Assembly (NCBI GenBank): GCA_023231475.1
Contig: JALJEE010000433.1
Location: forward strand, 1-45,462
Length of the DNA stretch: 45,462 nucleotides
Origin: Seison nebaliae
Lineage: Eukaryota
Direction of reading: 5' to 3'
In this document: positions 18,489 through 43,345 of the stretch, in pieces
Layout of the letters: each line of letters starts with the position of its first letter
How positions within the stretch are numbered: position 1 is the stretch's first letter
Notes under the pieces: model-generated
Seen by the model: the letters and a program-made list of their open reading frames with translations, nothing else
Databases searched by the model: none
What the model was told of the DNA's origin: nothing
Translations under genes and position numbers: made by a program

Positions 18489-19217
18489 TCACAATTCGTC
18501 GGAGAGTTTTGGGCGTCGAATTTGCCTCTTTTTTGTCTTCTTCAACTCTTCTCGTTCCTTCTCCTCCTTCTTCTTCAACATTGTCGTTGCGAATTCCTTT
18601 TGTGCTCGATATAATTCAACCGATTCCTGGAACTTATTCACGAAATTATCCGAACGAGATTGTACGTCGAATTGTTGGAGATAAACAAACAATATCTCCT
18701 TCAACGTTTCCGTCAAATATTTCGAATTTTTTGCCACATCCTCAATCACCTCACTAATCCATAACCAGTAATAATTGCGGTTTTTACGGAATTCCATACA
18801 ATCCCCAGTGAAATAGAGACAGAATGTGGAGAATGATAATGAGAGTTCGTGCATTTTCGAAAATGTATCACGTTCATTTAAATCGCTCGGTAAATTATTA
18901 GATACATCGATATCGGGATTTTTCATTCTCTCATTATTTAAAGTGACATAAATTTGATTGAATAATTTTTGTAAAGTTTCACCTCGAACTTCGTCCGAAT
19001 ATTCAAGCATTTTTACTGCAAATGCCGAAAATTCTTGTTGCGATTGTTGCAGTAATGAAATGAAAGTCTTCTCTTCTTTATCTTTAAAAGTTTCTTTTAT
19101 CGTCTCTTCATCCTTCTCTAACGTCACATTTACACTTTCAGACTTATTCGTCATTTGTGAGAAGATTATCGGAAGAATTATGAGAAAAATTAAAAGAAAT
19201 AAATTAATTTTTCCCAT
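18489..19217 (-). CDS. CCDC134: CCDC134-like ER-lumenal protein
   Basis: The ATG at 19217 opens a signal peptide (MGKINLFLLIFLIILPIIFS). LPSDLNERDTFS..F..F.LYF, LQQFDVQSRSDNFVN and a charged tail ending RRPKLSDEL (KDEL-like) align by eye with recalled CCDC134. Confidence 0.75.
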   Translation of the reverse strand: MGKINLFLLIFLIILPIIFSQMTNKSESVNVTLEKDEETIKETFKDKEEKTFISLLQQSQQEFSAFAVKMLEYSDEVRGETLQKLFNQIYVTLNNERMKNPDIDVSNNLPSDLNERDTFSKMHELSLSFSTFCLYFTGDCMEFRKNRNYYWLWISEVIEDVAKNSKYLTETLKEILFVYLQQFDVQSRSDNFVNKFQESVELYRAQKEFATTMLKKKEEKEREELKKTKKRQIRRPKLSDEL

Positions 19218-19414
19218 TCTATAAAAGAAAAAGAATAAATAACTTTTACAATTAGAATCACCAAATAGTATCAGATAGAATTTATGGAATAATAATTTCG
19301 TTGAATATTCTGAAAATGTGGTTTGATTAGAAAAAACTGACAAAAGAAAATTATTTAGTTCAATTTTAGTTGAAAGACGTCATAATTTGAAATTTATAGT
19401 ATAAATGCGCAGAC

Positions 19415-36905: not shown

Positions 36906-37598
36906 CAGTAGTCAGTAGAGTTATGTAAAAGGAAAGAATCGATTATATAATCATTGTGTATGAGACGTAAATCATAAAATAAGTTGGGTGAAAGAATAAA
37001 GATTTAATTAATTTGATATTAATATAAATTAGAAATTAATGAATTTATTTATCAGAAACAATTTCTATTCTTTTCTTTTTCGGATGTGGAGTTACGTATG
37101 ACCAAATCTTTCGGTGCATCTTATTCATATATATATTACATATTATGTATGAACTTCAACTTTTCCCTCATTTCTATTTACTTCTAATCACACTCATAAT
37201 GATTAAAATAATGGAAATAATACGAAATGACATTCATCAACTACATCCATCACCTCCCTCCTTCTCCCCATCTGCCCCATCTCTCTATATGTCCATTGAC
37301 AGCAGTAGTAGCGGCGGCCGTAGTAGTGGTGGTGGAATATACATGTCGATGATTCTATAGTCTCTCTATAACCGTCTGTACAAGTGGCTCTGTTGCCAGA
37401 CAGGAAAAAGAAAAGTAGATTGAAAGTGCTGAAATTTATTATTTTTTCTTCTCTATTCCAATTGCATTGCACATCGATGATTCTTCTCATTATTGTTTTC
37501 ATATGTTTCTCCCATAGTTTGCCCGTCTCGCTACCTCCGAGGAGCAGAATAACGAACACTATTTCTATTTGAAACACTTAATCGAATTGAGTGACACA

Positions 37599-38232
37599 AT
37601 GGGAAATGAATATTCCAATATCCCACTTGATCTTCCCGTCAACTTCGATTTGGAAGAGATCAAACGACTCGGTTCATCTTTTTCTTCTCTTCTCTCAATC
37701 TCAACTCAAACTTTTCATAGGTAAACGCTTTCGTCGAATCGATTTGGATGGGAATGGATCGTTATCTGCAACTGAATTCAAATCAATTCCCGAACTTGAT
37801 CAGAATCCACTCGTCCAAAGAGTCATCGACATCTTCGATACAGATAAAGATGGCGAGGTGGATTTTAAAGAATTTATTCAAGGTCTCATTTCCATTAGAC
37901 TATTTCTTTTACATCTCCATTTCCTTTCTCTTCTCCCCGAAGGAATCTCATTATTTAGTGTGAAAGGTGAAAAGTTGAGTAAATTAAGATTCGCCTTCCA
38001 AATTTACGATGTTGATAACGACGGGTATATAAGTAACGGCGAACTATTCCAAGTGCTCAAAATGATGGTAGGCAACAATTTGAAAGATACGGCCCTCCAA
38101 CAAATCGTGGATAAGACAATAATGAATGCAGATAAGGACGGTGACGGTAAGATCTCATTCGAAGAGTTTTGTGATGTCGTTGGCGATTCGGTGAAAACGA
38201 CGATCGAAACTAAAATGACCGTTCAATTATGA
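37599..38232 (+). CDS. PPP3R1: Calcineurin subunit B (PP2B regulatory subunit), 3 exons
   Basis: Exons 37599-37671, 37721-37882 and 37943-38232; introns 37672-37720 (49 nt, GTTCAT) and 37883-37942 (60 nt, GTCTCA..GAAG). Product MGNEYS...[22 protein letters not shown]...[14 protein letters not shown]...[35 protein letters not shown], with four EF-hands and a myristoylation Gly2. Confidence 0.97.
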
Positions 38233-38349: not shown

Positions 38350-41076
38350 TCAGTCTTCAAAAATACCTTCAATAATTGGATGTGCCAAATGGAAAGGTGA
38401 TTCCTGTTATTCTCATCATCAACAAATTCATCATTCGTCAAATGAAATTCTAACCAATAATTGTCGTCCATCTGAACTATTACATGATTGAGTGATGGGA
38501 GCACGATTATAGAAGTTTTGAAGTAATTGTCGACTGAACGGATTGATATTCATCATATTGAATAATTTCTTATGATCATTTGATCCATTAGTCGAAATAT
38601 TGAACGAACTAAGAAATGGAAAAGAAGGAATATATTTATAGGAATTATAATAACTAATTGTAAGTGGAGAAGAGTTTATCTAATGATTTCTCATCAACAG
38701 CCGATTTGCACAATTCCAAATTGATTGATGGGTAATAATGGATGTAATTAAGACACATCTCATCGAAGATACTCGTACCACCCTACGTTTCAAACGAAAT
38801 GAAGAGCAAATTAACATATTACATAACAATACATTAACATAAAACAAAGTTACCAACAAATGTCATTTTATTCCGTTCCATCGTGTTATGGAGACATTGA
38901 TGAATAATCATATCTCCCTGAATTGGAAATTAAGAAGAAATTCAATTGGACTTCATACGAACTGGAAATATTTTCACTTCATTCTGTAACAAACGAATTT
39001 CTTGAAATGTCGAATCATAATTCTCATCACGATTCAATGATATTATTTTCCCGTCTTTCCGCACGACATATGTGGAGACTCCAATTCCCGTCAAATGAGT
39101 ATGTAATTGAGAAGCGAAAACGGATATACCTTTTTCTGGTATGATCTTCATGGAACTGAAATGTTTCTAAAGTAGAAATAGAATTGGAACCTGTTCCGTA
39201 CATTCAGATAAACAGAAAGCAGTTTGAATAAATTTTGGGGATTGAGGTGGAATTGAATTAAGTTCGTTATATTCCAATCCCAATTCCATGATAGCGGCAT
39301 CGTTCGACCGGATATCAGGTGTGATGGTGAACCGAATTCCTGATGAATCTCTCACTCCAAGAATATGTCGGGGATTATTATAGTGAATCTCCAATACGAC
39401 ATAGGGAGGAAATGCTTCACCTCCAACAGGTGTGCCGGTGTTTGCAGGATAAATAAATTCCTAAAAGATTTCCAAAAAAATTTTGAAAAAAAATTAAATT
39501 TTTCTTCAAAACATATGAGAAACATTAGCACCCATGGCCCATGCACCCAATACTTTGCGGCATGATTCCAAGCCTGAAGGCTTCCCTTCACTCGTACATC
39601 GACCGTTATATTCCACGACTTCATCATCCGTCCAACAATGGAACAATTCCATATGGTGAACGATTCCTGATGATTCTGGCGACAGTTCCGCATCAAACTG
39701 AAAGAAAGAATTATTTTTTTACTCCTCAATATATTAACGGCGATTATATGATGTTTGTGAGATAATTTGGGGAATTTGAATGTTGTGCACCAATAGGTGG
39801 TCTCATCCGATGGTATTTCCACATTTCTCGCTCGGAATTTTATGGTGAAATTATTTGGGGTAGAATGAAGAGTGGAATAGAATAGTTTACTTTTTGGTAA
39901 TTGAATCATTTGGTAAATCGGTTCTCCAAAATGCAACTTGTTCAACATCGGAAGATCATTGCCAACAACGACGGAGGACGTGGACGATAATCCTTTCTCA
40001 ATATTGATCATCACCAAATGAGTAGTTCCTACCTGCGAAACAAAAACGTTACCAAGATGATGTTTCGGTTATCTAACTAAAATTTCATAAAACGGAATCG
40101 GCGGTTCTCGTTCTCGTTCGAATTGCACATAATTAAATGATTTCCATTTGAATTGTTTAATTTTCTTCAAAGTATTCATGGTGGAACTTCTTCCATTGAT
40201 TGAGCCATTGACGAAAAGAAGATGCTACAAATAAATGATTATGATTAATATGTAAATAATGAACTTCGATTAAACGATGTTCATTCGTATGTTGAGGATT
40301 GATGAGAATGAGATCGGAATCGATTAAAGATTTTTGAGATTGAGTAAATCCGAAAACGATTCCATTTGGTGAATGATTCAAGTTAGTTCGTATAATGAAA
40401 TCGAACGATTTTACATCACTCACATCATCACCATTCTCATTAACCGTCTTCACTCGATTCGTGTTCCAATACAATTTCATTTCATTTTTATTATCTAACA
40501 CGACCGAATTATAATTGGTCAATGATTCTTCGAAATTCTTCGACGATTCTCTAAAAATAATCACGAAATATTTGAATTCGAATTCTCATCGAAAATGAAC
40601 CGAAGACAATTCTTGAAAATTGATTTCAAACTGTCAATTCCATCGGACAATTTGAAGGATTCTAATAACTCTTCGATACAAGTCAAAATTGATTCGACTG
40701 ACGACTCTTCCAAATTCTTCAAAAATTCTCCACTTCGTTTTCCCATTAAATTTTTTGTGGACAAGGAAAACTGGTGTGGGAATTTGAAGAGATCTGAGTT
40801 GGTCTTTTCTCCATTCCAATCGGCATATGGAAAACGGAAAATTGGCTTCTGCCAAAAAGGAACTAATGGTCCGAAAATATTCGGACGGAAAAAAGGAAAT
40901 ATTTTCTTCCGACGAACTAAACTGCTACGATCGATGGCATTGTGAAGATAGTGAATTGCCGTTGGATAATTATCGAGAGTTCTCAGATGATGATCAATGT
41001 TTGTTAGTAAGTCGTCGATCGGTACTGAGTTAAGTTGGAGAAGGAAGAGAGTGAAAATGGTGAGATGGAGAAACAT
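38350..41076 (-). CDS. DBH/TBH: Dopamine/tyramine beta-hydroxylase (DOMON + copper type II monooxygenase) with a prohormone-like first exon, 11 exons
   Basis: Introns at 40600-40551, 40264-40225, 40077-40033, 39738-39698, 39523-39461, 39190-39146, 38962-38918, 38857-38783, 38654-38609 and 38454-38404. The spliced product has ETTYWC, GIVHHMELFHC, VLGAWAMGA, LEIHYNNP, DAAIMELGL, FASQLHTHLTG and DEMCLNYIHYYP, so all Cu ligands are present. Exon 1 linkage and the last exon are less certain than the core. Confidence 0.92.
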
Positions 41077-41405
41077 TTTTCGCTCGAGAAAATGAGAGAA
41101 TGAAAAAGAAATGGGAATGTTGTGCTGGAGGGTAGTTGGGAGAAATTAATAAATTATTCAAATGTTCCATCATTATCTTATCTTGTGATATTAATTTAGA
41201 AATTAATAAAATTATGTAAATTTATCGAGATGTTGAAGAATTGAGGAATATTGTTTAGTCTTAGGTGTTAATGAGAGATGTGGCGGTGGAATTAGAAAAA
41301 AAGTGAATTTACTTCAAAATAGGAAAAGCAATATTTTTGCGCTAATTGAAATAGGAAGAGGAATTTAAATGAAATGAAATAATTCGATATGAAAACTTAA
41401 TTCGA

Positions 41406-43345
41406 ATGGAAGAGATTCATCCGATAAAATTTAGTTTAAATGATAATGGACGATTTTATGCTTTTTTAAATCTGTACAATCATTCAGTGAATGCGTCACT
41501 ACTTTACAAGATCCTATCGAACAATCGGTATTATATCGCTAAACCGGCTATCTGTATTATTCCACCAAATAAGACAGTTCAATTAGAGATCATTCAGAAC
41601 ATCGACTATCCGGACGAGGAGAAAGTGAACCATCAATTCATTATCATTTGCCTCTTCCACCAGAATATCGAGCTGGGTGACCGTGAGAAATTACAGACTT
41701 TATTCAACTGTTAATTTATTTTAAGTTGATGTCAATGAAACTTTCATTTCGTAGCGAATAAAGAGAATGTGAGTCGAATTCAATTTTTTGCTAATCTACC
41801 CGATGACTTTGACGATTACGACGACGAAGGAATGAAAAACTTAAATTGTCATTTCACTAAATCTCATGATATCCGATTGACACATCCCATCATTGAGATT
41901 GTGGAGGATAAGGACTACGATCTAAGAAATAGGAATAACAATGCTAAAAAGGAGTCGGTAGACAGTTTAACATTTTCACTCATCGCTTATCCTTTGTAAT
42001 TTGAAGTAGAGGGTCAGAGGAAACAGAAAAAGAATTCGACGGAACCGTATTCCGATATCAGTTCGACCGGTACCAATCCACCGTCATCTAGACCACAGAT
42101 GGGGAAGAACGTTAACAATTTCATTCGTTCAACTAGTTAAAATATTCTCTAATAGTTCGTGGGTCAAACTTATCTTCAAATGATTCTCATACCCGTTCTC
42201 CTCATTCTACTCTTCTCTGCCGTCACTCTCCATTTGAGGAATCGTGGTGTGACAAGTTGATTTTGGAGAGTTCCATCATTTTTTTTCATTCATTTTCAGA
42301 AATTACCGTCGTCGCCAAACAAAAGACGATGAGACCACATTTGAAGAAACCGATATTAGTCATTCCTCATCAACAAGCGCATCCTCAACTTGCTTATCAT
42401 ACAGCCATGCGACCACATCCACGTCCACGACCTCCATTTCGACCCGGTTCCGCATATCCGTTCTTTCAATCCAAATTTCCCTTGAGAGTCGAAGAGGAAG
42501 AATATCAGGAATATCCAACTGAAGAAATTAGTTATGGGAAAGTGATGAATCATCAGCCGATCAATCCAACTGGTGTCGATTACCATTATGGTGGTGTCAA
42601 TCACCGGGGAAGACCGGGTGGAAGGATCGGTGGGAGACCAGTGGGCAGATCCGGTGGAAGGGGATCAATGAGGACAGGGAAACATAACAAATTTACGAAA
42701 GCGAAGAAATTGGCGGAACCGCCGATAGAAAAAACGGCAGTTAACACCCATACATTTATAGGTAGAAATCAGAAGATTAATCGAGCAAGTCATAAGATTG
42801 GTGCAAGTTCGGGTCATATGCCCATTGTTCAATCGAATAGTGTTCGGAGTATGATGGTGAACAGTGAAGTGGAAGCGAAGCAAAATCGAGAAATTGAGAA
42901 TTTAGTTCATGACAATTTGGCATTGGATAATCGAAATTTTATGATTAATCAAAATATCGGAGGTAACAACCGAATCGTTCGTGGAGCAGATGAAAATAAT
43001 GAACGTAGTAGAAACTTAAAACGAAGACATGTTCACACACTTCCCACATTTCAGGGTTCCCGCTATCGAGGTGTTCGTCCTAATATTCGAGATTATCGTC
43101 TTCTCGTCAAAGGAGCAATTGGGAAAGATTTCAAGTCACATATGGTTGATGTTCCTCGATTGCATCCTCTACAATTACAAGTGAAATCGTTAATGTCTGG
43201 TGATCTACAAGTGGATCGACCCGTTTTCAGTGATTACTTGAAAACGTTGTGTGAACAGGATCATTATGACAGAATTCTCCGAATCAAATGTATGGACACG
43301 GTGAAAAGAAATGCAGCGAAATTCAAGGGGAAAACTGTCAATTGA
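41406..43345 (+). CDS. Divergent MSP-domain (VAP/MOSPD-like) membrane protein with a long post-TM extension, 5 exons
   Basis: Exons 41406-41709, 41755-41964, 42010-42110, 42156-42255 and 42300-43345 join in frame through 44-45-nt GTT..AG introns. The N-terminus resembles an MSP fold (LNLYN..LYKI..YIAKP..IIPPNKTVQLEI...HQFII), followed by TM MILIPVLLILLFSAVTL. Confidence 0.65.

Follow-up and report, generated by a model that had tools for sequence, protein, structure and literature searches.

A prohormone-like first exon probably joined in frame to a dopamine/tyramine beta-hydroxylase gene in Seison nebaliae

Co-transmission of amines and peptides normally relies on separate, co-expressed genes. 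Dopamine and tyramine beta-hydroxylases (DBH and TBH) act in the vesicle lumen, and a glycine followed by Lys-Arg (G-KR) is the amidation signal of peptide precursors. Can a single gene supply both the peptide and the amine-making enzyme? The question is raised by a locus of Seison nebaliae (assembly GCA_023231475.1, contig JALJEE010000433.1), for which a sequence-only reading had proposed a prohormone-like exon that runs in frame into a DBH/TBH. The window analysed here is the whole stretch of 45,462 nt, and all positions refer to it. Seison is a marine rotifer relative, and the accessible parts of PMC8557429 indicate that the peptide complement of its group has barely been sampled.

The exact database counterpart of the window's catalytic exon is SNEBB_001402, an NCBI predicted protein of 741 aa from Seison nebaliae, which forms a single-member cluster. 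Mapped onto the window, it comprises 11 exons on the minus strand, from an ATG at 41076 to 38353 (Table 1). Its ten introns are 40–75 nt long and start with GTT without exception, and the first five introns of a hand-built model are those of the NCBI model. The accessible text of the Seison genome paper (PMC8351084) does not describe this TBH gene model; it does report a directional mRNA library of S. nebaliae with paired 150-bp reads. No other exon of the gene is as long as exon 1 with its 476 nt. Exon 2, previously taken to extend to 40157, ends at 40265, and the DOMON domain is spread over exons 2–4.

Table 1. Features of the Seison TBH gene in the window
Feature	Positions	Strand	Basis
Start codon and predicted signal peptide, about residues 1–18	41023..41076	-	Sequence, hydropathy; cleavage site inferred
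Spacer or pro-segment, residues 19–54, predicted helical (low confidence)	40915..41022	-	Sequence, fold models
RRKK tetrabasic, residues 55–58, predicted convertase site	40903..40914	-	Sequence
Candidate 53-aa Phe/Pro-rich peptide, residues 59–111	40744..40902	-	Sequence; pLDDT <50
GKR, residues 112–114, predicted cleavage and amidation signal	40735..40743	-	Sequence
Acidic helical tail with Cys133 and Cys157	40601..40734	-	Sequence, fold model
Intron 1, 50 nt, phase 2, GTT..TAG, contains the stop of the 171-aa ORF	40551..40600	-	Sequence and NCBI model
Alternative 69-nt GT..AG element, stop-less, in frame; would delete residues 54–76 including RRKK	40849..40917	-	Splice scores; absent from NCBI model
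Divergent DOMON, exons 2–4, introns 40264–40225 and 40077–40033	39994..40550	-	Rotifer TBH alignment, beta-sandwich model
Cu2_monooxygen N-terminal catalytic domain, His415, His416, His485	39365..39840	-	PF01082 E 3.5e-43, motifs
Cu2_monoox_C catalytic domain, His564, His566, Met639	38675..39301	-	PF03712 E 4.6e-53, motifs
C-terminal domain exons and TGA stop (38352–38350)	38350..38674	-	Exon mapping
AATAAA within exon 2, possible poly(A) signal of a precursor-only mRNA	40487..40492	-	Not above chance

Judged by its motifs and predicted fold, the enzyme body appears to be an intact DBH/TBH with predicted beta-hydroxylase activity. Residues 368–666 match the Pfam families PF01082 and PF03712 (E-values in Table 1), and all six copper-ligand positions are retained in conserved motifs; we take His415, His416 and His485 to be the CuH ligands and His564, His566 and Met639 to be the CuM ligands. 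The Pfam DOMON profile gave no match in the Seison TBH and a weak one in Adineta P0015. The domain was recognised by the rotifer TBH alignment and by a full sandwich at about residues 173–316 of an AlphaFold2 model, which was based on 62 of the 122 proteins collected and reached a mean pLDDT of 79.2. Foldseek paired this model with human DBH (4ZEL) at an E-value of 1.8e-50. Identity to the rotifer orthologues is 37–40%. Of the 6025 candidates in the homologue search, 800 reached an E-value of 1e-30 or better; the best 120 of these 800 are headed by two double-length centipede models, followed by rotifer TBHs, and no MOXD-named protein is listed among these 120. In a quick tree of 37 rows, built without a MOXD outgroup, the Seison branch is long, and a split with a support of 99 leaves it together with the rotifers and a planarian. 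DBH and TBH are treated as 1:1 orthologues of one orthologous group in the accessible part of PMC10244343.

With human DBH (4ZEL) and the TBHs of Brachionus and bdelloids, the Seison protein shares the DOMON, the two catalytic domains, the C-terminal domain and the copper ligands; unlike all of them, it has about 140 additional residues between signal peptide and DOMON. Its DOMON is divergent relative to those of DBH/TBHs. Two cysteines that are near-invariant in the other 15 aligned sequences are absent from the Seison TBH, one in DOMON (near 40110) and the last one of the C-terminus (38353); probably, one disulfide was lost in concert.

How firmly is exon 1 tied to this enzyme? The 50-nt intron that had been postulated to take out the stop codon and to join CLR to ESSKNF in frame is confirmed as a predicted splice, and the NCBI model has the identical junction. 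Intron 1 is like the other introns of the gene in length, GTT start and low GC content (26% versus 37% in exon 1). Its donor is within the top 106 of the window's 4136 GT sites, its acceptor is ordinary and weak (835 of 4133 in the window), and in the leave-one-out splice scoring it takes third place among 12 introns with 11.0. It is also true, as had been noticed, that the DOMON exon has neither a signal peptide nor a suitable ATG of its own: exon 2 begins before the first DOMON strand and before Met183. Because exon 2 aligns from about residue 168, i.e., upstream of this methionine, with the N-terminus of mature Brachionus TBH, it needs an in-frame exon upstream. Of the ATG ORFs that begin in the interval from 41400 to exon 1, just two have at least 10 codons; they start at 41173 and 41170, and both are without a phase-2 donor. 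Farther upstream, short ATG ORFs with phase-2 donors occur, but they run antisense within an MSP-domain gene (41373–41714, plus strand; PF00635, E 9.6e-09), which stands head-to-head with TBH across about 0.3 kb. Given the start position of exon 2 and this divergent neighbour, exon 1 is the sole source of a signal peptide that was found. We consider it very likely that the predicted in-frame join of exon 1 and TBH is real.

Of course, two overlapping genes or isoforms could mimic a fusion: one mRNA for the 171-aa precursor and another for a TBH that has a trans-spliced leader or starts with a different exon; the joined protein would then be a prediction artefact. Double-length or extra-domain DBH models are seen in other arthropods (P0006, P0007, P0121, P0098), and as these are probably merged predictions, fused models can be artefacts. 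SNEBB_001402 is a prediction without a second cluster member, the acceptor of intron 1 is weak, and the 171-aa ORF ends with a stop of its own, about 70 nt beyond which lies an AATAAA. The latter, however, is at chance level (20%), and the stop lies just 10 nt from exon 2. Nor was an alternative leader exon ending in a phase-2 donor found before the MSP gene, and a start at Met183 would cost the enzyme its first DOMON strand and leave it without a signal peptide. Two separate transcripts are, in our estimate, very unlikely. Retention of intron 1, formerly suggested to yield the precursor alone, appears to have no support beyond the chance-level AATAAA. An mRNA that retained it while the downstream introns were spliced would likely be a substrate of nonsense-mediated decay.

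Exon 1 displays the general features of an amidated precursor, i.e., a predicted signal peptide, basic cleavage sites and a G-KR. The 171-aa ORF (41076–40561, minus strand) contains in its translation all that had been ascribed to it: leader, spacer, RRKK, a 53-aa segment, GKR and a tail with two cysteines. The N-terminus is hydrophobic, with a best 11-residue Kyte-Doolittle mean of 2.23 versus 2.31–2.77 in four rotifer TBH leaders, and is by this hydropathy a predicted signal peptide. The 53-aa segment comprises 10 Phe and 7 Pro, and the last residues of the candidate peptide before GKR are LM. The tail of 45 aa behind GKR contains 9 D/E and 5 K/R. Folded alone, the 171-aa ORF reached a pLDDT of 38.7; in the AlphaFold2 model of the full protein, residues 34–124 are disordered and the tail forms a helical hairpin that spans the splice junction. 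Between GKR and DOMON there is no dibasic site, which implies that the tail would remain attached to the enzyme. By the codon model, the reading frame of exon 1 could not be told apart from its reverse strand.

How easily do such features arise by accident? In 100,000 shuffles of residues 18–159, GKR appeared in 2.1%, a dibasic site with a G[KR]R behind it in 1.6% and a tetrabasic site with a G[KR]R behind it in 0.02%, all of these patterns having been defined post hoc. In the ESM Atlas, the best match was a peptide-precursor cluster, FMRFamide-related at 0.91, followed by galanin at 0.90, and named peptide-hormone precursors made up 8 of the 10 rows shown. This signal is weak: the recognition value was 1933, under the 2300 mark, with a family common to only 1 of the 10 best matches, and residues 55–160 alone, i.e., without the leader, gave at most 0.82. 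That the insert is more prohormone-like than chance is moderately supported by these comparisons. The proposed search for a neuropeptide family was less rewarding: the 171-aa ORF hit no Pfam neuropeptide family and produced one non-significant match.

Among the published precursors compared, as far as they are accessible in the supplement of Thiel 2021 (PMC8557429) and in PMC6425005, NKY-1 appears to be the closest likeness. NKY-1 precursors are known in annelids, molluscs, nemerteans, phoronids and brachiopods (accessible parts of PMC6425005 and of the PMC8557429 supplement). What Seison appears to share with them is a signal peptide, a helical spacer, a basic cluster and then an aromatic pair plus GPL early in a long peptide; the FW[RQ]P..G-type motif of NKY-1 is partially matched by eye, to the consensus as well as to sequences. 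The NKY-like pattern has a shuffle rate of 8e-5, an uncorrected value for a post hoc pattern picked among about 70 families. The Seison peptide, however, lacks the RY-amide C-terminus and has 53 aa versus up to 43 in NKY-1, and its amidation site is followed by the 45-aa tail and the enzyme, whereas the NKY precursors compared, in the accessible material, end there. The RY-amide is diagnostic of NKY according to the available portions of PMC8557429, PMC6425005 and bioRxiv 10.1101/712687, and because of its absence we do not file the insert as NKY. The mismatch is softened by the NPF-like precursors of Rotaria, in which the peptide ends at RR without an amidation glycine (accessible part of PMC6425005, supplement file 3): rotifer peptides can lose family-defining C-termini.

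Precursors of GnRH, corazonin and AKH also resemble the Seison exon in having a peptide with GKR followed by a helical tail with two cysteines. The Cys spacing is similar in the tail of AKH; it amounts to 26 residues in phoronid corazonin, as far as the published material is accessible, versus 23 in Seison. In these precursors, however, the peptide directly follows the signal peptide and carries a Trp close to its end. Seison differs in both respects and has no Trp in the 20 residues before its GKR (residue 112). PDF/cerebrin, NPY/F, NdWF, QSGamide, corazonin and tachykinin-type LM-amides were rejected upon by-eye comparison with the accessible published precursors, as were, as a match, 39 of the 41 'Rotifera' places listed from the accessible supplement file of PMC6425005.

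A hidden intron would spoil these comparisons. If the stop-less 69-nt element of Table 1 were spliced out, the true protein would be devoid of RRKK and the NKY-like stretch, and GKR would be its sole basic pair left. The unusual length of exon 1 fits this suspicion, and the neighbouring calcineurin B gene provides an example of a stop-less intron. The element's donor (8.7) and donor plus acceptor (9.8) score within the range of real introns, but 5 pseudo-introns with equal scores turn up in 8727 nt presumed to be coding, a rate of 0.57 per kb, from which about 0.27 are expected in exon 1. Only 15 of 917 coding windows are as intron-like in composition as the element; the Markov model of introns, however, is a weak one, with known introns scoring -0.30 to +0.17. 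On the other hand, the element has 39% GC and 5 CpG versus 17–38% and 0–3 in 12 introns, and simulated open intron-like 69-mers contained a tetrabasic run in 0.12% and the NKY-like motif never. The NCBI model leaves the element unspliced, and we deem its removal improbable.

What do the relatives tell? From the 122 proteins collected, 3 longer than 900 aa were left out and 119 aligned; 104 have an initial Met and are aligned at the Trp of DOMON. Seison has 186 residues before this Trp, compared with a median of 45.5 and a maximum of 174 in the 104 homologues and with 36–48 in 9 named rotifer orthologues. None of these 9 has the insert, and the conservation of RRKK and GKR that had been looked for in related TBH N-termini thus fails at rotifer depth. 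A leader GKR is found in 0 of the 104 homologues, a looser G-basic pattern in 3 of 118. No relative of the insert was detected among 1.84 billion representatives, among 21 word-sharing candidates of 94–300 aa in a word-indexed search, or among 121 homologue N-termini (best E 0.068); nor did the database searches or the rotifer alignment reveal a homologue of the peptide. With no relative in any of these searches and no counterpart in the rotifer orthologues, the insert is considered lineage-specific. A metagenome scan for rotifer TBH yielded 22 loci, none exceeding 46% identity to Brachionus TBH.

Long leaders as such have precedents. At least 100 leader residues are present in 8 of the 104 homologues, and three of the proteins, Capitella P0048, P0061 and P0044, have a signal peptide, 110–125 residues before the DOMON Trp and several basic pairs, i.e., the Seison order of signal peptide, long basic-site spacer and DOMON. 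P0061 and P0044 fall inside an annelid clade (SH-aLRT 99, quick tree), and the leaders would represent an independent gain of a pro-segment. One of the three has a furin-type site.

Since three homologues of the annelid clade have basic-site pro-segments of their own, an extension without a peptide is nothing unheard of, and the earlier caveat that GKR might mark a mere pro-segment is well taken. The fusion would then be real, and the insert would be a pro-segment or a sorting extension peculiar to the TBH of this lineage, trimmed at basic sites or kept, without any signalling peptide. This would also be in line with a GKR that alone is at a chance level of 2–4% and with the failure to match a peptide family. 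The annelid-clade extensions, however, are not homologous to the insert; they are shorter and have neither GKR nor the Cys pair. Moreover, simple release of a pro-segment needs no amidation glycine, and the order of tetrabasic site, peptide, GKR and helical tail is typical of prohormones. A pure pro-segment is in our opinion unlikely, yet to be taken seriously.

The preferred reading remains a polyprotein that is cleaved. Splicing of intron 1 would put exon 1 in frame with the enzyme and result in the order signal peptide, spacer, RRKK, peptide, GKR, helical tail and TBH. The product would enter the secretory pathway via the exon-1 signal peptide, and prohormone convertases would cut it twice, at RRKK and GKR, in secretory vesicles. 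The predicted 53-aa peptide would be trimmed and amidated at GKR; the mature enzyme would be soluble and retain the two-Cys helical tail. Peptide and enzyme would share vesicles, and co-release with octopamine or noradrenaline may follow. Of the original polyprotein proposal, the one fused model, the intact enzyme and the lack of another signal-peptide exon have stood, while no family is fully matched and the basic sites are not conserved. That one mRNA combines the prohormone-like exon with TBH, and that the peptide is cut out and amidated, has not quite an even chance in our judgement; the release of a bioactive amidated peptide is a slightly more tentative proposition.

As to the origin, an adjacent, fast-evolving neuropeptide gene, possibly NKY-like, was probably captured, by inference, and replaced the short leader exon of the enzyme in this compact genome. 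The bolder version, that a whole diverged NKY-like gene was fused with TBH, seems rather doubtful; amine and peptide co-transmission would then be hard-wired, the prohormone would act as a sorting leader for the enzyme, and retention of the intron would be an option for making the peptide alone.

The case is built on one species and one predicted junction. If true, joining prohormone and enzyme in one polyprotein would be a genetic shortcut by which amine and peptide are coupled in amount and location within the same vesicles, and a functional fusion in a compact genome. It would also provide a candidate neuropeptide for a barely sampled group (PMC8557429, accessible parts). If the insert is just a pro-segment, we are left with a minor lineage-specific oddity. 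Among titles and abstract openings from the accessible, mostly open-access literature, no report of a prohormone-enzyme fusion, of a TBH extension with convertase sites or of Seison neuropeptides was seen.

The surroundings of the gene deserve a few remarks. A promoter shared by TBH and the MSP-domain gene is possible. On the other side, a calcineurin B-like EF-hand gene (37591–38232, plus strand) lies tail-to-tail with TBH, the stops being about 120 nt apart; its stop-less intron of 60 nt spans 37883–37942. The usual donor pattern is GTR. Of the two calcineurin B introns (within 37672–37942, plus strand), one starts with GTT and the other with GTC, and with 10 of 10 TBH introns (within 38404–40600, minus strand) starting with GTT, Seison donors seem to favour T at +3. 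Of four sequencing runs compared with the locus as contigs, three cover it without spliced joints and one has no match; the contigs behave as DNA, which makes them silent on expression and splicing. Low-depth divergent contigs cover 37207–37536 and 37934–38003, and none was seen over exon 1 at 90% likeness; they may stem from a second Seison lineage, the mitochondria of the two lineages being 82% identical. Finally, an ORF at 18489–19379 (minus strand) has a signal-peptide-like start and a C-terminal SDEL, and its product is possibly ER-resident.
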